Shown in pieces: positions 2,598 through 47,889 of a DNA stretch of 64,000 nt; the first letter of the stretch is position 1; each line of letters starts with the position of its first letter. The translations under genes were made by a program, and so were the position numbers. Source of the stretch: a virus (lineage: Duplodnaviria > Heunggongvirae > Uroviricota > Caudoviricetes); IMG/VR virus record IMGVR_UViG_2718218305_000006. One strand, given 5' to 3'. The notes beneath the pieces are model-generated. The model was not told where the DNA came from and did not search any database. It was given only the letters and a program-made list of their open reading frames with translations.

Positions 2598-2761
2598 CAT
2601 ATCGTTTGCACAGTCACATTCGCGATTTATGGCGGGCTGTGTGGGGGAGCCGAAAGGCTCGCCGGTTTCCGTACCCGGTAGTGCTAACCCCGCACAGTTC
2701 GCCACCACGATGATTAGCACCTGACGGTGGCGATAATGTCCAAATGTACGGAGTTATCGTT

Positions 2762-3319
2762 ATGACCACTCAGATTTCTGTCGAAACTCTTTCCCCAATT
2801 ACACACAACCAAATTCCCGTTATCACTACCGAGTTACTGGCACAGCTTTACTGTACCGAGATCAACAACATCAAAGTAAATTACACCCGTAATTCCGAGC
2901 GTTTTGTTGAGGGTAAACACTTTTTCAAGGTTGTTGGTGATGAGTTGAAAAATTTGCGGGTTACTTTAAGTAACTCACAAACGCCTGTTTCCCCCAAAAC
3001 CCGCTCCCTCATCCTCTGGACAGAACGAGGCGCAGCCCGTCACGCCAAAATGCTCGAAACCGATCAGGCGTGGGATGTGTTCGAAAAACTGGAAGACTGC
3101 TATTTCAGACAAAAGGATCCGTCAGCGCCAGCTTCATGCCAGAAAAGTTACGACACGCGAGTTCTCTGTTATCAGCGAGGCGGTGTCACTGTTTCCACAA
3201 TTCAGTTGCGGGATGATGATATTGTTATTTCCCTTGAGTCATGGCTGGAACTGGCGAGAGCCAATGGTTGGTTTGTTGTTCGCAGAGATAAACTGGTGGA
3301 AAGGCTGATGCAGCTTTAA
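2762..3319 (+). CDS. ORF6N-domain (antirepressor N-terminal-like) protein
   Basis: GGAG RBS 8 nt upstream of ATG; motifs NSERFVEGKHFF..LWTERGAARHAKML..AWDVFEKLEDCYF resemble the ORF6N/antirepressor N-domain. Confidence 0.5.
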   Translation: MTTQISVETLSPITHNQIPVITTELLAQLYCTEINNIKVNYTRNSERFVEGKHFFKVVGDELKNLRVTLSNSQTPVSPKTRSLILWTERGAARHAKMLETDQAWDVFEKLEDCYFRQKDPSAPASCQKSYDTRVLCYQRGGVTVSTIQLRDDDIVISLESWLELARANGWFVVRRDKLVERLMQL

Positions 3320-3477
3320 AAAAGTTCTTGCAATTTTAGCCATAAACTGCTTCAATTCCGGTACGCTTCGCAAAGCTGTATCGCGAGGCGAACCAAGCGC
3401 ATGAACTTTACCAGAACCCGCCATTGAGCGGGTTTTTTATTGCGGAATTAATTACGGACCGTTATTATTCTGCTCCC

Positions 3478-3553
3478 GGCCCTTTAGCTCAGTGGTGAGA
3501 GCGAGCGACGCATAATCGCCAGGTCGCTGGTTCGAATCCAGTACAACGCGCCA
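3478..3553 (+). pseudogene. chimeric tRNA remnant (tRNA-Ile 5' part, tRNA-Arg 3' acceptor strand)
   Basis: 5' 56 nt near-identical to tRNA-Ile at 44708; 3' ACAACGCGCCA matches tRNA-Arg at 44884; acceptor strands cannot pair; position 33 is G instead of T. Confidence 0.5.
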
Positions 3554-3567
3554 CACTTATTTTCCCT

Positions 3568-3593
3568 GGCTCGCTTTTGCGGGCCTTTTTTTT
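3568..3593 (+). terminator. rho-independent terminator after tRNA remnant
   Basis: GGCTCGC-TTTT-GCGGGCC stem-loop followed by a T8 run. Confidence 0.55.
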
Positions 3594-3659
3594 AAATGTC
3601 TCACAATTCAGGCGGTTGACTGTTGTCTGGTTTGCGGGGAGTTTGTTAAAAGAAACTGG

Positions 3660-3765
3660 CATGGTGAATCCCCCTGTGCGGAGGGGCAATCAGTGAGTAG
3701 GTATATGGGATAATCGCGGATTCAGGTGCTGGTACTGAATTCACCGGGAGGCACCCGGCACCATG
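3660..3765 (+). other. conserved 106-nt structured element upstream of nanS-p (copy 1)
   Basis: Bounded by CATGGTG..CACCATG; internal CCCCTGTGCGGAGGGG hairpin; second copy at 45760..45865. Confidence 0.3.
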
Positions 3766-4032
3766 CAAGAAAAAGAATGTGCATGCAAACATGCCCCTCT
3801 CCGGAGGGGCATTTTTTATGGGTAAAAAATGCCCGAATGGGTTCGGGCAATAGCATGAGATACTGATATTGTTGTGTTGTTATCGTGTGGATTTTAACCA
3901 GGGTTTATCAGGCTGCGCAACTGCGTGGCCTTTTTTCATTTCTTGGGCTGTAGTCCCCGTGTGTCATTCAGGCTTCCGGACTACAGCCCACTCCATATCT
4001 GATTTAATACACTATCCCGGCCGGGAGGAATA

Positions 4033-5979
4033 ATGACATTTAAACATTATGATGTTGTCAGGGCGGCGTCGCCGTCAGACCTTGCTGATGCACTTGCTCA
4101 AAAAATTCGTGAAGGATGGCAACCATACGGCGGGCCGTTTTCTTCGTATACGGATGATGGCGCAGCACTTATTCAGGCGATTGTCGCAGAAGGTGATGTG
4201 AGCACACCTGTTGTGGTGAAGCCGACAGGTGGAGAAGGTGCAGTAATCAGCGCCACCAGAGACCCGGAGTATTACTTTGTTGTGGTTCTGGCGGGGCAGT
4301 CAAACAGCATGGCATATGGTGAAGGCCTTCCGCTGCCGGAGACATATGACCGTCCGGACCCGCGTATTAAGCAGCTGGCGCGCCGCAGTACGGTGACACC
4401 GGGCGGTGCAGCATGCAAATATAACGACATCATTCCGGCGGACCATTGTCTGCATGATGTGCAGGACATGAGCCGCCTTAACCATCCGAAAGCGGACCTG
4501 TCAAAGGGGCAGTACGGTACCGTGGGGCAGGGGCTGCATATTGCCAAAAAACTGCTGCCGTTTATACCGGAGAATGCGGGCATTCTGCTGGTTCCGTGCT
4601 GTCGTGGTGGTTCAGCGTTCACCACCGGAGCTGATGGCACATACAGTGACGCGAGTGGTGCCTCGGAGAATTCAACCCGCTGGGGTGTGGACAAGCCGCT
4701 GTATAAGGACCTTATCGGTCGAACAAAAGCAGCACTGAAGAAGAACCCGAAAAATGTGCTGTTTGCCGTGGTGTGGATGCAGGGGGAATTTGATTTTGAC
4801 GGCACGCCCGGAAATCACGCAGCACAGTTTGGTGCGCTGGTTGATAAATTCCGTGCAGACCTGACGGATATGGCAGGTCAGTGCGTCGGTGGCTCTGCTG
4901 GCGGTGTTCCCTGGATATGTGGAGATACGACGTATTTCTGGAAGCAGAAGAACGAATCCACGTACCAGACGGTGTACGGCAGCTATAAAAACAAAACGGA
5001 AAAGAATATCCATTTCGTACCGTTCATGACCGATGAGAACGGGGTGAATGTGCCGACGAACAAACCGGAAGAAGACCCGGACATTCCGGGTATCGGATAT
5101 TACGGTTCGAAATGGCGTGACAGCTCAGCCACCTGGACGTCACAGGACAGGGCGAGCCATTTCAGCGCCTGGGCACGCCGTGGGATTATTTCCGACCGTC
5201 TGGCAACGGCGATTTTGCGCCATGCGGGAAGAGTGGCGCTAAACGCGGGGGCATCATCGACAGTATCAGAGGTGCGCCCGTCATCGCCTTCCGGTGCAGA
5301 AGCCACAGGCGTCACAACACTGCTCTCTTACCTTGCCAGCGAGTCAGAGGGAAGCCTGAAAGTACAGGGATGGTCAGCCAGTGGCGGCAGGGCAGAAGTG
5401 GTCAGCGATGCGGAGGGAACCGGAGGTAAGGCAGTGAAGCTGACCAAGGAAGCCGGTAAAAGCAGCTGGGTGCTGGAGTACGCCGCGGGCAACGGTGCGG
5501 CTCTGTTACAGAAAGGGGGGCAGATTCGCTGCCGCTTTAAGGTTTCGGGAGCGCTGGCTGCGAACCAGTATGTTATGGCGTTTTACTGGCCGGTATCTTC
5601 ACTGCCACAGGGCGTTGCCCTGACCGGAGACGGGGGGAATAACCTGCTGGCAGCGTTCTACATCCAGACAGATGCAAAAGACCTGAATGTGATGTACCAC
5701 AATGCGAAAGTAGCGACAAACAACCTGAAACTGGGAACCTTTGGCGCATTTGATAACGAATGGCATACGCTGGCTTTCCGCTTTGCCGGGAATAACAGCC
5801 TTCAGGTGACGCCGGTTATTGATGGTCAGGATGGCACACCGTTCACGCTGACGCAGTCACCGGTCAGTGCATTTGCGGCGGATAAACTGCATGTGACAGA
5901 CATTACCAGGAATGCGACTTACCCGGTGCTGATTGACAGCATTGCGGTGGAAGTGAACAACGCGGATGCCGCGGCATGA
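4033..5979 (+). CDS. nanS-p: prophage sialate O-acetylesterase NanS-p (DUF1737 + SGNH/SASA domain)
   Basis: 648 aa; GGAGG RBS; N-terminal MTFKHYDVVRAASPSDLA (DUF1737-like) and VVLAGQSNSMAYGEG SGNH block I; same slot as nanS-p downstream of stx in Stx phages. Confidence 0.8.
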   Translation: MTFKHYDVVRAASPSDLADALAQKIREGWQPYGGPFSSYTDDGAALIQAIVAEGDVSTPVVVKPTGGEGAVISATRDPEYYFVVVLAGQSNSMAYGEGLPLPETYDRPDPRIKQLARRSTVTPGGAACKYNDIIPADHCLHDVQDMSRLNHPKADLSKGQYGTVGQGLHIAKKLLPFIPENAGILLVPCCRGGSAFTTGADGTYSDASGASENSTRWGVDKPLYKDLIGRTKAALKKNPKNVLFAVVWMQGEFDFDGTPGNHAAQFGALVDKFRADLTDMAGQCVGGSAGGVPWICGDTTYFWKQKNESTYQTVYGSYKNKTEKNIHFVPFMTDENGVNVPTNKPEEDPDIPGIGYYGSKWRDSSATWTSQDRASHFSAWARRGIISDRLATAILRHAGRVALNAGASSTVSEVRPSSPSGAEATGVTTLLSYLASESEGSLKVQGWSASGGRAEVVSDAEGTGGKAVKLTKEAGKSSWVLEYAAGNGAALLQKGGQIRCRFKVSGALAANQYVMAFYWPVSSLPQGVALTGDGGNNLLAAFYIQTDAKDLNVMYHNAKVATNNLKLGTFGAFDNEWHTLAFRFAGNNSLQVTPVIDGQDGTPFTLTQSPVSAFAADKLHVTDITRNATYPVLIDSIAVEVNNADAAA

Positions 5980-32973: not shown

Positions 32974-33031
32974 AAAAAGGGCGGCAGAGCAGCCACGGAG
33001 TAAAACTGATACCGCCAAACGTCACCAGAAA
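32974..33031 (-). ncRNA. dicF: DicF small RNA
   Basis: Minus strand reads TTTCTGGTGACGTTTGGCGGTATCAGTTTTACTCCGTGGCTGCTCTGCCGCCCTTTTT, matching recalled DicF with its terminator hairpin. Confidence 0.7.
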
Positions 33032-40118: not shown

Positions 40119-40408
40119 CCTGGCCTGAAGCATTCACAACGGTAGGAATTGCGATGGCGGTGGCGCTGGTGGTGTATTCGATTTGCCGCTGGGGATAAAA
40201 ACGGTTTGCGGGAAAAGGATAGTTAAGTAGAATTGCTGCGGGTGCTTGAGGCTATCTGCCTCGGGCATGAACACCAACGGCAGATAGAGAAAAGCCCCAG
40301 TTAACATTACGCGTCCTGCAAGACGCTTAACATTAATCTGAGGCTCAATCCATGCTGAACACATGTAGGTTAGCCTCTTACGTGCCGAAAGGCAAGGAGA
40401 AGCAGGCT

Positions 40409-40564
40409 ATGAAGCAGCAAAAGGCGATGTTAATCGCCCTGATCGTCATCTGTTTAACCGTCATAGTGACGGCACTGGTAACGAGGAAAGACCTCTGCGA
40501 GGTGCGAATCCGAACCGGTCAGACGGAGGTCGCTGTCTTCGTAGACTACGAATCTGAGAAGTAA
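40409..40564 (+). CDS. hok: Hok/Gef-family type I toxin (overlapping mok-like frame from 40352)
   Basis: MKQQKAMLIALIVICLTVIVTALVTRKDLCEVRIRTGQTEVAVFVDYESEK parallels Hok (..LTRKSLCEIRYRDG..EVAAFMAYE..). Confidence 0.7.
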   Translation: MKQQKAMLIALIVICLTVIVTALVTRKDLCEVRIRTGQTEVAVFVDYESEK

Positions 40565-41149: not shown

Positions 41150-41422
41150 ATGACACAACACATAAAATCCCACAATTCTGAAGCCGACCCGGAAATTAAG
41201 CAGGGGAGGCGTTTTCGTGCGCCTCAGTATGGCTGGTTTCACTATCTGTTCTGTACGATCGATGAGGCAGATATGCTTCAAGAGGCGTATCTGCGTCGCG
41301 GTGTCCGTGTGGAGCGGAGTCTGAACGCTGATCGTCTGACCTGGACCGTTTCTGTATATCTTCCTGTTCGTGCACATCTGCCACGGACACATGCCTGCTA
41401 CCGTCAGCGCGTCTGGAGGTAA
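41150..41422 (+). CDS. hypothetical protein (90 aa) upstream of DUF968 gene
   Basis: Same slot and similar pattern as 215..493. Confidence 0.35.
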   Translation: MTQHIKSHNSEADPEIKQGRRFRAPQYGWFHYLFCTIDEADMLQEAYLRRGVRVERSLNADRLTWTVSVYLPVRAHLPRTHACYRQRVWR

Positions 41423-42473
41423 TGTGCGGGTATTACTTCGACCTGTTCTGGTTCCGGAACTCGGGCTGGTGGTCCTTAAGCCCGGTCGTGAATCATTGCC
41501 AGTTTTTCATCGCGGCAGGGTGCTGGTGGAGCCGGAACCGAAAAACATGCGGGCGCTGCCATCTGGAGCGGTTCCTGCTGTTCGCCAGCCGCTGGCGGAA
41601 GATAAATCACTGCTGCCATTTTTCAGCGATGAGCGGGTGATTCGTGCAGCTGGCGGCGCTGGTGCACTGTCTGACTGGTTATTACGTCACGTGAAATCCT
41701 GCCAGTGGCCACACGGCGATTATCATCACAGCGAAACCGTTATTCACAGTTACGGTGCTGGCGCAATGGTGTTGTGCTGGCACTGCGACAACCAGCTGCG
41801 CGACCAGACCTCCGAATCACTTGAGCAACTTACTCAACAAAATCTGACAGCCTGGATGATTGACGTCATACGCCATGTAATGAATGGCACGCAGGAGCGG
41901 GAATTATCGCTGGCTGAATTATCCTGGTGGGCAGTCTGCAATCAGGTGGTGGACGCATTACCTGAGGCAGTATCGCGTCGCTCTCTGGGATTACCGGCGG
42001 AAAAAATCCGCTCCGTATACCGTGAAAGCGACATCATACCGGGAGAACAGACCGCCACCAGCATACTGAAGCAGCGCACAAAAAATATTGCGCTACCGCC
42101 TCACACCCACCAGCAACAGAACCCACCACAGGAAAAGACGGTGGTCAGCATTGCCGTTGATCCGGAGTCTCCGGAATCCTTCATGAAACGACCTAAACGT
42201 CGCCGCTGGGTAAATGAGAAATACACACGCTGGGTAAAGACACAGCCGTGTGCGTGTTGTGGTAAGCCAGCGGACGATCCTCATCATCTGATTGGTCATG
42301 GTCAGGGCGGAATGGGAACAAAATCCCACGATATTTTCACGCTACCGCTGTGTCGGGAGCATCACAACGAGCTTCATGCGGATCCGCTGGCGTTCGAAGA
42401 AAAGCATGGTTCCCAGGTTGATTTAATTTTTCGTTTTCTTGATCACGCCTTTGCAACCGGCGTGCTCGGGTAA
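41370..42473 (+). CDS. DUF968-family prophage protein (YdfU-like)
   Basis: 367 aa; long stretches identical to 495..1559. Confidence 0.65.
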   Translation: MHICHGHMPATVSASGGNVRVLLRPVLVPELGLVVLKPGRESLPVFHRGRVLVEPEPKNMRALPSGAVPAVRQPLAEDKSLLPFFSDERVIRAAGGAGALSDWLLRHVKSCQWPHGDYHHSETVIHSYGAGAMVLCWHCDNQLRDQTSESLEQLTQQNLTAWMIDVIRHVMNGTQERELSLAELSWWAVCNQVVDALPEAVSRRSLGLPAEKIRSVYRESDIIPGEQTATSILKQRTKNIALPPHTHQQQNPPQEKTVVSIAVDPESPESFMKRPKRRRWVNEKYTRWVKTQPCACCGKPADDPHHLIGHGQGGMGTKSHDIFTLPLCREHHNELHADPLAFEEKHGSQVDLIFRFLDHAFATGVLG

Positions 42474-42485
42474 AAGAGGTTACTG

Positions 42486-42791
42486 ATGCGTATAGAGTTT
42501 GTTTTGCCTTACCCGCCGACGGTGAACACCTACTGGCGACGTCGTGGCAGCACATATTTTGTATCAAAAGCCGGTGAGCGTTATCGCCGGGATGTGGCAC
42601 TTATTGTTCGCCAGCAGCGGCTGAAATTAAACCTGTCCGGAAGGCTGGCGATAAAGATTATTGCAGAGCCACCGGATAAGCGCCGTCGTGACCTGGACAA
42701 TATCCTGAAAGCACCACTGGATGCGCTGACGCATGCCGGACTTCTCATAGACGACGAGCAGTTTGATGAAATCAATATTGTGCGCGGCTAG
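42486..42791 (+). CDS. rusA: RusA resolvase, truncated by premature TAG
   Basis: Identical to the copy-1 N-terminus up to ..EINIVRG then TAG where copy 1 has CAG; downstream frame still encodes ..LVSGGRLGVKIYKIESE. Confidence 0.75.
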   Translation: MRIEFVLPYPPTVNTYWRRRGSTYFVSKAGERYRRDVALIVRQQRLKLNLSGRLAIKIIAEPPDKRRRDLDNILKAPLDALTHAGLLIDDEQFDEINIVRG

Positions 42792-42841: not shown

Positions 42842-43408
42842 GTGAGCATAAATATGATATACCCGGAAATTACAGGCAAAAGCGGTGAGCATTTACGCCT
42901 GAAAACGCTGGAAAGTGTCTGGATCCAGGGGAAACTGCGTATGTGGGGGCGTTGGTCGTATATTGGCGACGGTAAGACGGGAAATATGTTCAACCAATTA
43001 CTGACCTCTAAAAAGCTGACAAAAACGGCAATTAACGAGGCGCTCCGGAGGATGAAAAAAGCGGGTCTGGACAAACCTGAACTTGAGGCTTTTTTGCGGG
43101 ATATGATCAACGGCAATCAAAAAAGCTGGCTGGCACATTGTACCGATTCAGAGGCGTTAATAATCGATAGGGTTATTGGTGAAGTACTGGCAGGTTATCC
43201 CGGGCTGCTCAATGTTCTGAGTCAGCGTTATGTGGGGCGGGGGATGACTAAGCGCAAAATGGCTGAATTGCTGAATGATGCACATCCGGAATGGAGTTTA
43301 AGAACCTGTGAAAGACGCATTGAGCATTGGCTAAAGGTGGCAGAATTTATTTTGTACAAACCAATGGTTATGGCTTTTGGTATAGAGAAAAAAGTTATTG
43401 CTTTTTGA
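42842..43408 (+). CDS. late-gene antiterminator Q-like protein
   Basis: 188 aa; N-terminal two-thirds near-identical to 1922..2488, C-terminus diverged; followed by conserved element and terminator. Confidence 0.75.
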   Translation: MSINMIYPEITGKSGEHLRLKTLESVWIQGKLRMWGRWSYIGDGKTGNMFNQLLTSKKLTKTAINEALRRMKKAGLDKPELEAFLRDMINGNQKSWLAHCTDSEALIIDRVIGEVLAGYPGLLNVLSQRYVGRGMTKRKMAELLNDAHPEWSLRTCERRIEHWLKVAEFILYKPMVMAFGIEKKVIAF

Positions 43409-43965: not shown

Positions 43966-44679
43966 ATGGCTGTTGTCTGTTCAGTTATCATGGTTTGCTC
44001 CCCAATTAATATTTTTCTTGAAAAGGATACGTTGTCACTTAAGCCAGGCTCAGTCGTTCTGGCCACCAAATGCATCAGGGAGCTTTTCCTTATGCATTAT
44101 GGCAAAGTTAAAATTGTCGATATAAGCGAATCCGTCGTAAGTCAATATCTGGAAAGTCAGCATAAGCTGACGAGGACTCGTCTGACTGACATTCCGCTTT
44201 ACCTGTTGCTGGAACCCAACAATCCTGCGTTGGCTGCGGCTTTAATTACCAGCCAGGGATTTTCCGGAGAGGTCACGGATATGTTTCTTATGATGGCCTG
44301 CCTGTCTCTGTTTGAAACAGATGAACGGATGTCATTGTTTTTAAGTGGATGTTTATCCAGCATAAGTGCCAAAGTCAGGGCGATAATTCAGACAGATATA
44401 TCAGCAAGCTGGACGCTTGGTGCGATTGCTCTACAGTTGCATATGAGTGAGAGTTTGTTAAAGACAAAACTGAAAAATGAAGGGGGCATGTTCAGTCGCT
44501 TGTTGCTGGAAGAGCGGATGCGTGTTGCTGTAAATATGTTATGTTCCCGGTATGGATATGGACAGGCTGTAGCAGAAAAATGTGGTTATTCAAGCCGGTC
44601 CTACTTTATTTCTGTATTTCACCGCTATTATGGCTTCCCGCCAGACAGATATGTATCCAGGCAAGGGCTTGATTATTGA
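43966..44679 (+). CDS. AraC-family transcriptional regulator
   Basis: C-terminal AraC HTH (..SWTLGAIALQLHMSESLLKTKLK..RSYFISVFHRYYGFPP); located between Q and the tRNA genes. Confidence 0.7.
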   Translation: MAVVCSVIMVCSPINIFLEKDTLSLKPGSVVLATKCIRELFLMHYGKVKIVDISESVVSQYLESQHKLTRTRLTDIPLYLLLEPNNPALAAALITSQGFSGEVTDMFLMMACLSLFETDERMSLFLSGCLSSISAKVRAIIQTDISASWTLGAIALQLHMSESLLKTKLKNEGGMFSRLLLEERMRVAVNMLCSRYGYGQAVAEKCGYSSRSYFISVFHRYYGFPPDRYVSRQGLDY

Positions 44680-44707
44680 TTTTCATCTGATTATTATTTT
44701 TTGGCTC

Positions 44708-44783
44708 GGCCCTTTAGCTCAGTGGTGAGAGCGAGCGACTCATAATCGCCAGGTCGCTGGTTCAAATCCAGCAAGGGCCACCA
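44708..44783 (+). tRNA. tRNA with CAT anticodon (ileZ-like tRNA-Ile2 or tRNA-Met)
   Basis: Cloverleaf: acceptor GGCCCTT/AAGGGCC, anticodon loop CTCATAA, T-loop GGTTCAAATCC, 3' CCA encoded. Confidence 0.8.
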
Positions 44784-44790
44784 TCACAAA

Positions 44791-44870
44791 CCGCCATTAG
44801 CTTATCAGGAAGAGCAGACGACACCATAACAGGGTTGTTGGTGCGGGGCCGGGTCCCCGATGGCGGTCCA
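44791..44870 (+). other. degenerate tRNA-like element between the two tRNAs
   Basis: Perfect 7-bp acceptor pairing CCGCCAT/ATGGCGG, D-stem and CGGGG/CCCCG T-stem, but 6-nt T-loop and no standard 7-nt anticodon loop. Confidence 0.25.
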
Positions 44871-44883
44871 TTATCGGTATTCT

Positions 44884-44960
44884 GCGTTGTTAGCTCAGCC
44901 GGACAGAGCAATTGCCTTCTAAGCAATCGGTCAGTGGTTCGACTCCACTACAACGCGCCA
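44884..44960 (+). tRNA. tRNA-Arg (anticodon TCT, argO-like)
   Basis: Acceptor GCGTTGT/ACAACGC, anticodon loop CTTCTAA, T-loop GGTTCGACTCC, CCA encoded. Confidence 0.85.
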
Positions 44961-44973
44961 CACTTATTTTCCA

Positions 44974-44997
44974 GGCTCGCTTCGGCGGGCCTTTTTT
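44974..44997 (+). terminator. rho-independent terminator after tRNA-Arg
   Basis: GGCTCGC-TTCG-GCGGGCC followed by TTTTTT. Confidence 0.55.
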
Positions 44998-45129
44998 GTA
45001 TCTGCGCCACGCCCGGCGCATACCAACCACAGAGCCTTTCGGGGGTGAGCTTACGGAGTGGTCAGTGTGACTTTCTCTGTGGGCAGATCGCTCCCGGGCG
45101 TTGGCTCACCCACCCAAAGGAACGTCACG

Positions 45130-45725: not shown

Positions 45726-45759
45726 TTTTTTTGTTTGCTGTTTATTAAAAACACTTCTG

Positions 45760-45865
45760 CATGGTGAATCCCCCTGTGCGGAGGGGCGATCAGCAACCAG
45801 GTATATGGGATAATCGCGGATTCAGGTGCTGATACTGAATTCACCGGGAGGCACCCGGCACCATG
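45760..45865 (+). other. conserved 106-nt structured element upstream of nanS-p (copy 2)
   Basis: Same termini CATGGTG..CACCATG and core as 3660..3765, with a cluster of substitutions in the middle. Confidence 0.3.
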
Positions 45866-46038
45866 CTTTGCCACAAAAGTGTTGTTTCTGTTTTTCTCAA
45901 ACTATCATCGTTATCCCTTTATTTCCGGCTGCGCATGGCGCGGCTTTTTTTTACGACCAGCCACTGGCAGATGGTCATCCTGTGATTTGATTCCGGTTCC
46001 GGCTTTTTAACTCTGTTCCTGTACACGGGAGAAATTCG

Positions 46039-47889
46039 ATGTCGATTAAACATTATGATGTTGTCAGGGCGGCGTCGCCGTCAGACCTTGCGGAAAAGCT
46101 GACACACAAACTGAAAGAGGGCTGGCAGCCGTTTGGTAGTCCGGTGGCCATAACCCCTTATACCCTGATGCAGGCGATTACAGCAGAAGGTGATGTGGTG
46201 GTCAGTGGTGCAACTGAGCCGGATTGGTACTACGTCATCGTACTGGCCGGGCAGTCCAATGCCATGGCTTACGGTGAAGGGCTTCCGCTGCCGGATTCAT
46301 ACGATGCTCCGGATCCGCGCATTAAACAGCTGGCGCGCCGCAGTACAGTGACGCCGGGTGGGGCTGCCTGCAGATATAACGATATTATTCCGGCCGACCA
46401 CTGCCTGCATGATGTGCAGGATATGAGTACGCTGAATCATCCGAAGGCAGACCTGAGCAAAGGGCAGTACGGCTGTGTCGGCCAGGGGTTACATATTGCC
46501 AAAAAACTGCTCCCGTATATCCCGAATAACGCGGGGATCCTGCTGGTACCATGCTGTCGTGGTGGTTCGGCATTTACCCAGGGCGCGGAGGGGATATTCA
46601 GCGAGTCCACGGGGGCCAGCCAGGATTCGGCGCGCTGGGGTGTGGGTAAACCGTTATATCAGGACCTGATTGCGCGCACCAAAGCTGCATTACAGAAGAA
46701 CCCGAAAAATGTGTTGCTGGCGGTGTGCTGGATGCAGGGAGAGTTTGACATGAGCGCCGCCACCCACGCACAGCAACCTGCGCTGTTTACAGCCATGCTG
46801 ACACAGTTTCGTGCTGACCTCTCCGTGTTTAACGCGCAGTGCCATGGTGGCAGTGCTGCAGATGTGCCGTGGATTTGTGGTGACACGACGTATTACTGGA
46901 AAAATACATACGCTACCCAGTACGACACCGTGTACGGCGGGTATAAAAACAGGGAGAGTGAGGGCGTTTATTTTGTGCCCTTCATGACAGACGGTAACGG
47001 CGTCAATACCGCCACTAACGCGCCGGCAGAAGATCCGGATATTCCGGCATCAGGATATTACGGTGCGGCATCGAGAACGAATGGAAACCAGGTATCATCA
47101 AACCGCCCGACACATTTCAGTTCATGGGCGCGCAGGAGCATTATTCCGGATCGTCTGGCAACCGCTATTCTGAACGCAGCCGGGCGCACCTCAGCCTTCA
47201 TCAGTGGTAAGGCACCGGAAATCAAACCCTCGCCCGGCGGCAACACGCCATCGGGTCCGTCTGCAGATACGTCCGTTCGCACAATCTCCCTGCTGCCGGC
47301 AGCCGGAGAGGCTGCTGCGCAGGGCTGGAGCATTAAGGATGGCGGAATTCAGTTGTCAGATGGTGTATTTAAGATCACCAGGCAGAGCAATAAAACCTGG
47401 TCCCTGACGCATCCGGTGGATGACGCAATTACCCTGCTGACACAGGGCGGCAGACTGACCTGTAAGTTCCGCCTGTCAGGCGCACTGACCAACAATCAGT
47501 TCGGGCTGGGGATTTATCTGTATACGGACGCTCCCGTTCCTGATGGTGTGGCGATGACGGGTACCGGTAATCCGTTCCTGATGTCGTACTTCACTCAGAC
47601 CACTGACGGCAGAGTGAATCTGATGCATCACAGGAAAGCCGGAAACACGAAGCTGGGGGAGTTCGGCGATTACGGTAACGACTGGCAGACGCTGGAGCTG
47701 GTGTTCACCGCCGGCAGTGCCACGGTTACTCCGAAACTGAATGGAGTGGCTGGCCCGGCATTCCAGGTTATAAAAGACAGTCTGACACTGGGACTGAATG
47801 CGCTGACGCTGACGGATGTTACAAAAAATGCAGCGTATGGCGTTGAGATAGAAAGTCTGATGCTGGAGATAAATGCACCGGCAGCATAA
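46039..47889 (+). CDS. nanS-p: prophage sialate O-acetylesterase NanS-p paralogue
   Basis: 616 aa; MSIKHYDVVRAASPSDLA.. and VIVLAGQSNAMAYGEG; catalytic domain highly similar to 4033..5979, C-terminal domain diverged. Confidence 0.8.
   Translation: MSIKHYDVVRAASPSDLAEKLTHKLKEGWQPFGSPVAITPYTLMQAITAEGDVVVSGATEPDWYYVIVLAGQSNAMAYGEGLPLPDSYDAPDPRIKQLARRSTVTPGGAACRYNDIIPADHCLHDVQDMSTLNHPKADLSKGQYGCVGQGLHIAKKLLPYIPNNAGILLVPCCRGGSAFTQGAEGIFSESTGASQDSARWGVGKPLYQDLIARTKAALQKNPKNVLLAVCWMQGEFDMSAATHAQQPALFTAMLTQFRADLSVFNAQCHGGSAADVPWICGDTTYYWKNTYATQYDTVYGGYKNRESEGVYFVPFMTDGNGVNTATNAPAEDPDIPASGYYGAASRTNGNQVSSNRPTHFSSWARRSIIPDRLATAILNAAGRTSAFISGKAPEIKPSPGGNTPSGPSADTSVRTISLLPAAGEAAAQGWSIKDGGIQLSDGVFKITRQSNKTWSLTHPVDDAITLLTQGGRLTCKFRLSGALTNNQFGLGIYLYTDAPVPDGVAMTGTGNPFLMSYFTQTTDGRVNLMHHRKAGNTKLGEFGDYGNDWQTLELVFTAGSATVTPKLNGVAGPAFQVIKDSLTLGLNALTLTDVTKNAAYGVEIESLMLEINAPAA

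Follow-up and report, generated by a model that had tools for sequence, protein, structure and literature searches.

A deletion-derived tRNA-Ile/tRNA-Arg hybrid pseudogene in prophages of STEC

RESULTS

Two prophage regions share a gene order around a tRNA slot

The window, by which we mean the whole 64,000-nt stretch of DNA analysed here (IMG/VR record IMGVR_UViG_2718218305_000006), carries two prophage regions built in the same order: DUF968, RusA, a DUF1133/Q-like antiterminator, cargo, a tRNA slot, STnc100 and a NanS-p-like gene. In prophage 1, the genes for DUF968 (495-1559), RusA (1560-1925) and the DUF1133/Q-like antiterminator (1922-2488) are followed by isrK/C4 RNAs (2508-2709), an ORF6N protein gene (2744-3319) and a hairpin with a T run (3415-3440). 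Next come the 76-nt element that is the subject of this work (3478-3553, + strand) and its terminator (3568-3596). STnc100 (3630-3823, +, a full-length match of 143.7 bits) directly abuts AgvB, an anti-GcvB sponge encoded on the other strand (3824-3885, 96.5 bits), and the NanS-p-like gene (DUF1737, SASA and DUF6645 domains; 4033-5979) precedes the lysis genes.

Prophage 2 presents the corresponding genes for DUF968 (41370-42473), RusA (42486-42791) and DUF1133/Q-like antiterminator (42842-43408), then an AraC-type regulator (HTH_AraC, HTH_18; 43966-44679), the tRNA slot, a second STnc100 copy (45730-45902) and a NanS-p-like gene (46039-47889); no AgvB match was found in prophage 2. The cargo between the Q-like gene and the tRNAs is thus an ORF6N module in prophage 1, an AraC regulator in prophage 2 and a DNA methylase in Stx2 phages. 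The same order surrounds the 76-nt element in three further regions that we retrieved (L001, L002 and L006), and phage Stx2a_1447 has it with stx2AB.

The tRNA slot of prophage 2 contains an intact ileZ-type tRNA-Ile2 gene with anticodon CAT (44708-44783, +; Rfam tRNA score 72.5 bits) and an intact argO-type tRNA-Arg(TCT) gene (44884-44960, +; 67.3 bits), which served as references for the 5′ half and the 3′ end of the prophage 1 element, respectively. The 100-nt spacer between them harbors a decayed argN remnant (44791-44870, +), recognized by alignment to argN of phages Nil3 and Stx2a_1447. It keeps the acceptor halves CCGCCAT/ATGGCGG and a CCA end, its anticodon arm and T loop are scrambled, and neither ARAGORN nor an Rfam scan at E≤1 calls it. 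A remnant of the same form is present in phage mEp460_ev081 (L005 1647-1726).

Some other features of these regions deserve mention. The isrK/c4-a1b1/C4 antisense RNA module (2508-2709) and the ORF6N gene, which lie between the Q-like gene and the 76-nt element, resemble a P1/P7-type immI or a Gifsy-type isrK antirepressor cassette; its ORF6N counterpart in the O121 strain RM8352 carries the annotation of a truncated pseudogene (L002 2363-2713). RefSeq places on the minus strand, at 3649-3792, a 144-nt pseudo-CDS ('hypothetical protein, incomplete'), also found in L001 (5250-5393), L002 (3250-3393) and L006 (3209-3352); it lies wholly within the STnc100 match and was probably called in error. 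The early region of prophage 2 gives matches to the sok antitoxin RNA of the hok/sok type I toxin-antitoxin system (40240-40414, +) and to the DicF sRNA (32979-33030, −), and hokD is annotated at the spot of L001 that corresponds to the sok match.

The prophage 1 element joins a tRNA-Ile 5′ part to a tRNA-Arg 3′ end

The element at 3478-3553 reads GGCCCTTTAGCTCAGTGGTGAGAGCGAGCGACGCATAATCGCCAGGTCGCTGGTTCGAATCCAGTACAACGCGCCA. The sequence-only reading had described it as a 76-nt chimera with an Ile 5′ part and with the 3′ end, discriminator, CCA and terminator of an Arg gene, set against separate tRNA-Ile(CAT) and tRNA-Arg(TCT) genes in prophage 2. ARAGORN finds both prophage 2 genes, and index-by-index comparison and alignment bear out the coordinates and the content of the chimera: its 5′ half matches the Ile gene, its 3′ end and flank the Arg gene. 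Over tRNA positions 1-64 it differs from the intact Ile(CAT) gene only at position 33 (G vs T, window 3510) and position 57 (G vs A), then at seven positions from 65 on (65, 67-71 and 73). Its final 12 nt, TACAACGCGCCA (3542-3553), recur unchanged at 44949-44960 in the Arg(TCT) gene, and the 43 nt of 3′ flank that include the terminator (3554-3596) align to 44961-45002 with one gap and a few substitutions. Within the window, a 32-nt 5′ block and a 25-nt 3′ block each occur only at the chimera and at the prophage 2 locus, with 0 matches expected from 100 shuffles.

The segment derived from ileZ covers tRNA positions 1-49 (3478-3526) and equals 44708-44756 except for G33. It is followed by a heptamer shared by both genes, CTGGTTC (positions 50-56, window 3527-3533), and by the argO-derived segment (positions 57-76, window 3534-3553), which is identical to the 3′ end of Nil3 argO and brings the T-loop G57, the 3′ acceptor strand ACAACGC, the discriminator G73 and CCA. 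The D, anticodon and T arms are present and the acceptor stem is absent. The strands GGCCCTT (positions 1-7) and ACAACGC (66-72) can form only two of the seven standard pairs (G1-C72 and T7-A66), against seven of seven in each intact gene. The acceptor strands are therefore as unpairable as had been stated, and window 3510, read directly, is indeed the G reported at position 33, where every intact allele has T. The discriminator is G73, instead of A73 in the intact Ile gene. Moreover, the fold energy of the chimera is no better than that of shuffled sequences (z = −0.97), compared with z = −4.03 for the intact Ile gene.

Upstream of the chimera, a promoter-like TTGCGG-17-TATTAT (3440-3468, +) is a weak match of putative function. 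It falls below the threshold of a promoter scan both in the window and in the O111 copy (L006), while the homologous TTGATT-17-TATTAT that precedes the intact cluster (44669-44697) passes. Since the scan is passed only at the intact prophage 2 cluster, transcription of the chimera is something we infer rather than observe. Downstream, an intrinsic-terminator-like hairpin inherited from argO (3568-3596, +; 7 bp, GGCTCGC/GCGGGCC, and a T run) has homologous counterparts at 44973-44992 and in L006. With these signals, an unprocessed RNA of about 115-120 nt may still be made.

tRNA finders and public annotation disagree about the chimera

Run on the 64-kb window, ARAGORN calls two tRNA genes only, the CAT gene at 44708-44783 and the Arg(TCT) gene at 44884-44960; the chimera is not called here, nor in two other genomes that carry the same element (three genomes in total). 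The Rfam tRNA model gives only a local match to the chimera (3484-3543, model positions 7-64), in which the three arms are paired and from which the acceptor stem is excluded. The score of 37.3 bits exceeds the gathering score of 29 bits, and compares with 72.5 bits (Ile) and 67.3 bits (Arg) for the intact genes, both matched over their full length.

In RefSeq, PGAP labels the identical sequence 'tRNA-Met' in every genome examined, including all 161 complete E. coli genomes that have it, as a 71-nt gene equivalent to window 3483-3553 and without pseudogene flag (e.g. O157:H7 EC4115, NC_011353, with the junction at 1753702-1753756). A tRNA finder that calls a functional tRNA with a paired acceptor stem would speak against a scar. 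PGAP does make a call, but the span starts at T6 and thus contains no paired 7-bp acceptor stem, so that the label does not refute the scar reading. Intact CAT-anticodon copies are labelled 'tRNA-Ile' by PGAP, and ARAGORN labels the intact gene Met; because PGAP recognizes the intact copies as Ile, the 'Met' given to the chimera reflects failed Ile2-specific recognition. Throughout STEC genomes, the label on the dead hybrid is an annotation artefact of a systematic kind. PMC5552260 simply notes, for the intact gene, differences between Met and Ile labelling.

The parent is an ileZ-argN-argO cluster and the crossover probably lies in a shared heptamer

A 221-nt query around the chimera matched 288 records in a phage collection. 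Among the records listed, with the exception of mEp460_ev081, the query splits into two pieces that bracket annotated ileZ, argN and argO genes; these matches identify the parent array as the tRNA cluster known from Stx-converting phages and their lambdoid relatives. Both flanks of the chimera are collinear with intact ileZ-argN-argO clusters, and the parent cluster also held argN, or an argN remnant, that was lost in the deletion.

The cluster of phage Nil3 (AM051322) is particularly informative. The T arm of its argO, CACTGGTTCGAATCCAGT (CTGGTTCGAATCCAG), matches the chimera, and its 3′ flank has the sequence of window 3554-3700. Nil3 ileZ reads ...GGTCGCTGGTTCAAATCCAG, Nil3 argO reads ...GGTCACTGGTTCGAATCCAG, and the junction of the chimera reads GGTCGCTGGTTCGAATCCAG, with position 49 of the Ile type and position 57 of the Arg type. 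As Nil3 argO has A at position 49, G49 is the last Ile-specific base of the chimera, assuming parents of the Nil3 type. The exchange thus took place inside CTGGTTC (positions 50-56, window 3527-3533). The T arms of ileZ and Nil3-type argO make up a direct repeat of 20 nt with two differing positions, GGTC[G/A]CTGGTTC[A/G]AATCCAG, whose copies are 174 bp apart, the two heptamers being at L003 positions 390 and 564. Removing in silico the 174 bp between the Nil3 heptamers yields window 3478-3707 save for two of the 230 positions, one of which is T33G. This virtual deletion, together with the collinear flanks, upholds the view that the chimera is a deletion or recombination scar in a tRNA cluster.

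The argO of prophage 2 has a different T arm (GTGGTTCGACTCCAC). Comparison with that allele had led to a switch placed at position 64/65, with G57 taken as a deviation within the Ile part; this placement was dropped once the Nil3-type argO allele was seen, which moves the crossover to positions 50-56. With a Nil3-type argO as parent, G57 is derived from Arg and demands no extra mutation, so that T33G is the sole extra change within the gene. If the parental alleles are left open, the crossover can be bounded only to about positions 46-64.

Other alleles of the two genes exist. Intact Ile alleles with G57 (T loop TTCGAAT) occur in 28 genomes, those listed being porcine ETEC and O139:H1, and a single Arg allele with G49 was found in the junction-query survey, whose variant listing names porcine ETEC, O139:H1 and strain M15. 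Such alleles make the ileZ and argO T arms more alike, with up to 15-20 identical nt. Clusters that carry them might undergo the same deletion more readily.

One allele is shared by many STEC prophages in several flank contexts

The distribution of the hybrid was surveyed with a 55-nt junction query built in such a way that neither intact gene seeds a match. At 100% identity, the junction is present in 161 of 5,426 complete E. coli genomes, always on the chromosome and in at most two copies each; the carriers among those listed are all of STEC type and include O157:H7, O121, O111 and O145. An exact-pattern scan found it in 22 IMG/VR contigs, and the GTDB species-representative genomes that were scanned gave 0 matches. 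Since the allele is shared at full identity by these 161 genomes and 22 contigs, the deletion scar proposed for prophage 1 stands, but the event did not take place in this genome.

G33 is present in all 25 chimeras retrieved, and the 76-nt body is invariant in 23 of them. The two other copies, on IMG/VR contigs L010 and L019, carry G18A in the conserved D loop (CAGTAGTGAG), which could mark a sub-lineage. A chimera with T33 was sought with a synthetic query, whose best match (99.4%) was the G33 allele, so that no such intermediate was seen; likewise, a search for an intact Ile gene with G33 covered 7,481 places in 3,052 genomes and gave none (best identity 98.7%). G33 is therefore confined to the hybrid, as would fit a gene that decayed once the deletion had occurred, or at the same time: it is a secondary inactivating substitution. 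T33G, seen in the chimera alone, and G18A, present in L010 and L019, are as expected under relaxed constraint.

The hybrid occurs in three flank combinations: downstream of an ORF6N gene and a terminator, which is the situation in the window; immediately behind a DNA methyltransferase gene, as arranged in Stx2 phages; and in this second upstream context with a variant downstream trailer. The same body in these different contexts speaks for one origin, after which recombination moved the hybrid among prophage backbones. No stx gene was found downstream of the chimera in any examined region (L001, L002, L006 and L027). An STnc100-type sRNA and a gene for a nanS-p-like esterase are present in the downstream regions that could be read through. 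This holds also for the fully read L027, a copy with the variant flank, in which a nanS-p-like gene, and not stx, comes after an STnc100-like region. In L007, the approximately 700 nt up to the contig end contain no sizeable ORF; L013 has the downstream flank of these two. Intact ileZ-type genes reach up to 12 per genome.

In the searchable literature, no description of this Ile/Arg hybrid allele turned up. As for PMC2858043, a 'pS tRNA promoter' and SNPs of the intact cluster are all that it mentions.

DISCUSSION

The element at 3478-3553 is, by descent, a member of the lambdoid ileZ-argN-argO cluster and, by kind, a deletion-derived hybrid tRNA pseudogene, an ordinary kind of event. We hold with high confidence (probability of about 0.93) that it is a non-functional product of a short-homology deletion in this cluster, which later acquired T33G and then spread. 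Its flanks are collinear with the tandem array, the interior of the array is missing and the junction lies in a repeat common to both genes.

In the course of events that we propose, an ancestral lambdoid prophage would have carried ileZ (Ile2, CAT), argN (Arg, TCG) and argO (Arg, TCT) between the Q region and a nanS-p-like gene, the slot that in Stx phages is occupied by stx. An exchange inside CTGGTTC, through replication slippage or through short-homology or unequal recombination, would have removed ileZ positions 57-76, the whole of argN and argO positions 1-56. The product keeps the promoter-like region, three arms from ileZ (with the 3′ half of the T arm from argO), the 3′ acceptor strand, G73 and CCA of argO, and the argO terminator. 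Its acceptor strands, coming from two different tRNAs, cannot pair. T33G would then have struck the near-universal U33, and the dead allele would have been disseminated across STEC prophage backbones by recombination. Other prophages, such as the one at 44708-44960 of the window, still supply ileZ and argO, so that the dead allele would be neutral, which is probably why it persists. Loss of the cluster was probably neutral as well, with up to 12 intact ileZ genes per genome and one ileZ/argO pair in the window itself.

The way in which the 174 bp were lost allows more than one route. The same scar would result from an unequal homologous exchange, in which ileZ of one prophage or sister chromosome recombines with argO of another copy. 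STEC genomes hold up to 12 copies of the cluster, and the three flank combinations show that prophages swap this region. The shared tract, on the other side, comprises just 7 nt of perfect identity, or 20 nt if two mismatches are allowed, a length below that usually needed for efficient RecA-mediated exchange, and both flanks fit one known arrangement, that of Nil3, with no need for an event between elements. We consider unequal exchange rather unlikely, although the product alone cannot distinguish it from slippage. A site-specific event can be set aside with much more assurance. A 2026 preprint on Pas/STnc100 sRNAs takes tRNA matches near these sRNAs as remnants of integration sites. Here the junction does fall in the T arm, but no element boundary, integrase gene or direct repeat accompanies it, and the att-scar reading was rejected. 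The chimera sits within the late-regulatory region, with Q on one side and the lysis genes on the other, the window has no further copy of either half besides the intact genes of prophage 2, and what has been lost corresponds exactly to the inner part of the tRNA cluster. Crossover in the T loop of a tRNA gene, with a partial tRNA 3′ end left behind, is frequent among integrases, and the T arm is a common att core; for the present junction, such an origin has hardly any probability.

Is the hybrid nevertheless active in some way? The RefSeq annotation implies a working tRNA, tRNA-Met or tRNA-Ile2: PGAP lists it unflagged in every genome examined, its Rfam score lies above the gathering threshold, and three arms (D, anticodon and T) are preserved, as is the CCA end. 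The stack of acceptor and T arm, however, is needed by RNase P and by the CCA/aminoacylation machinery. The acceptor stem is read by RNase P, TilS and IleRS/MetRS alike; TilS and IleRS recognize the acceptor-stem pairs and the discriminator of tRNA-Ile2, and U33 forms the U-turn of the anticodon. With two of seven acceptor pairs, a 71-nt span that starts at T6, a model match limited to positions 7-64, negative ARAGORN results in three genomes, G33 for U33 and G73 for A73, the chimera cannot serve as a tRNA, and we give this possibility practically no credence. More subtle would be the exaptation of an acceptor-less, tRNA-like sRNA, with transcription starting at the old tRNA promoter and ending at the argO terminator. 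As a decoy or sponge, it might occupy, for instance, anticodon nucleases, defence systems that target tRNAs, tRNA-modifying enzymes or enzymes specific for tRNA-Ile2. Such a role, if true, would explain the identical allele in several STEC prophage backbones. The promoter-like element and the terminator are retained, 23 of 25 copies, spread over three flank contexts, have an identical body, and the surroundings are rich in sRNAs, with STnc100 and AgvB immediately downstream. The invariant body, the retained signals and the unflagged tRNA annotation also speak against a dead hybrid, although recent common descent explains the invariance equally well. No sign of covariation or of selection beyond such descent was seen, G18A in two copies would break the contact between D and T loops, G33 alters the very anticodon loop that a decoy must mimic, and the fold is no better than that of shuffled sequences. 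Moreover, the hybrid is carried by only about 3% of complete genomes and is absent from all GTDB species representatives. An exapted sRNA is thus very improbable, and a dead hybrid formed by deletion accounts best for the locus.

The hybrid shares its slot with the ileZ-argN-argO clusters of Nil3, Stx2a_1447 (AP012536) and phage 2851, downstream of Q/DNA methylase and upstream of stx or a nanS-p-like gene. Its 5′ 49-56 nt are those of ileZ, G33 excepted, and its 3′ 20-27 nt and terminator those of Nil3-type argO. It differs from these clusters in that a single 76-nt hybrid stands in place of three intact tRNA genes: argN is gone, the partner acceptor strands are lost and U33 is mutated. Hybrid or fused tRNA genes that arise by deletion between neighbors sharing T-arm or D-arm sequence are a known class. 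As in this class, the junction lies in sequence common to tandem genes, one repeat and the intervening DNA are lost, and secondary mutations follow. While tandem copies of the same isoacceptor recombine to a working gene, the partners here are different isoacceptors, so that the product is dead. The argN remnant of prophage 2 and mEp460_ev081 is likewise an eroded cluster member in stx-less lambdoid prophages; it decayed by substitutions and small indels with both acceptor halves in place and no fusion deletion. The tRNA 3′-end fragments found at prophage attachment sites are also partial tRNA sequences inside or beside a prophage, but they mark the ends of an element and duplicate the 3′ end of a host tRNA, whereas the chimera is internal and joins two phage tRNA genes.

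For annotation, the practical consequence is that the 'tRNA-Met' label inflates tRNA-Met counts and can mislead studies of tRNA repertoire and codon usage in STEC. The unique junction and G33 together make a clean marker of identity by descent, useful because the same allele is found in at least three flank contexts, and could serve to trace recombination among STEC prophages. The biological weight of the finding is small. By comparison with intact clusters, both prophages of the window carry eroded ones, along two routes: prophage 2 lost argN through substitutions and small indels, and prophage 1 lost everything through the fusion deletion. The locus illustrates the ways in which the lambdoid rare-codon tRNA cluster is eroding in stx-less resident prophages of hosts that hold redundant copies.
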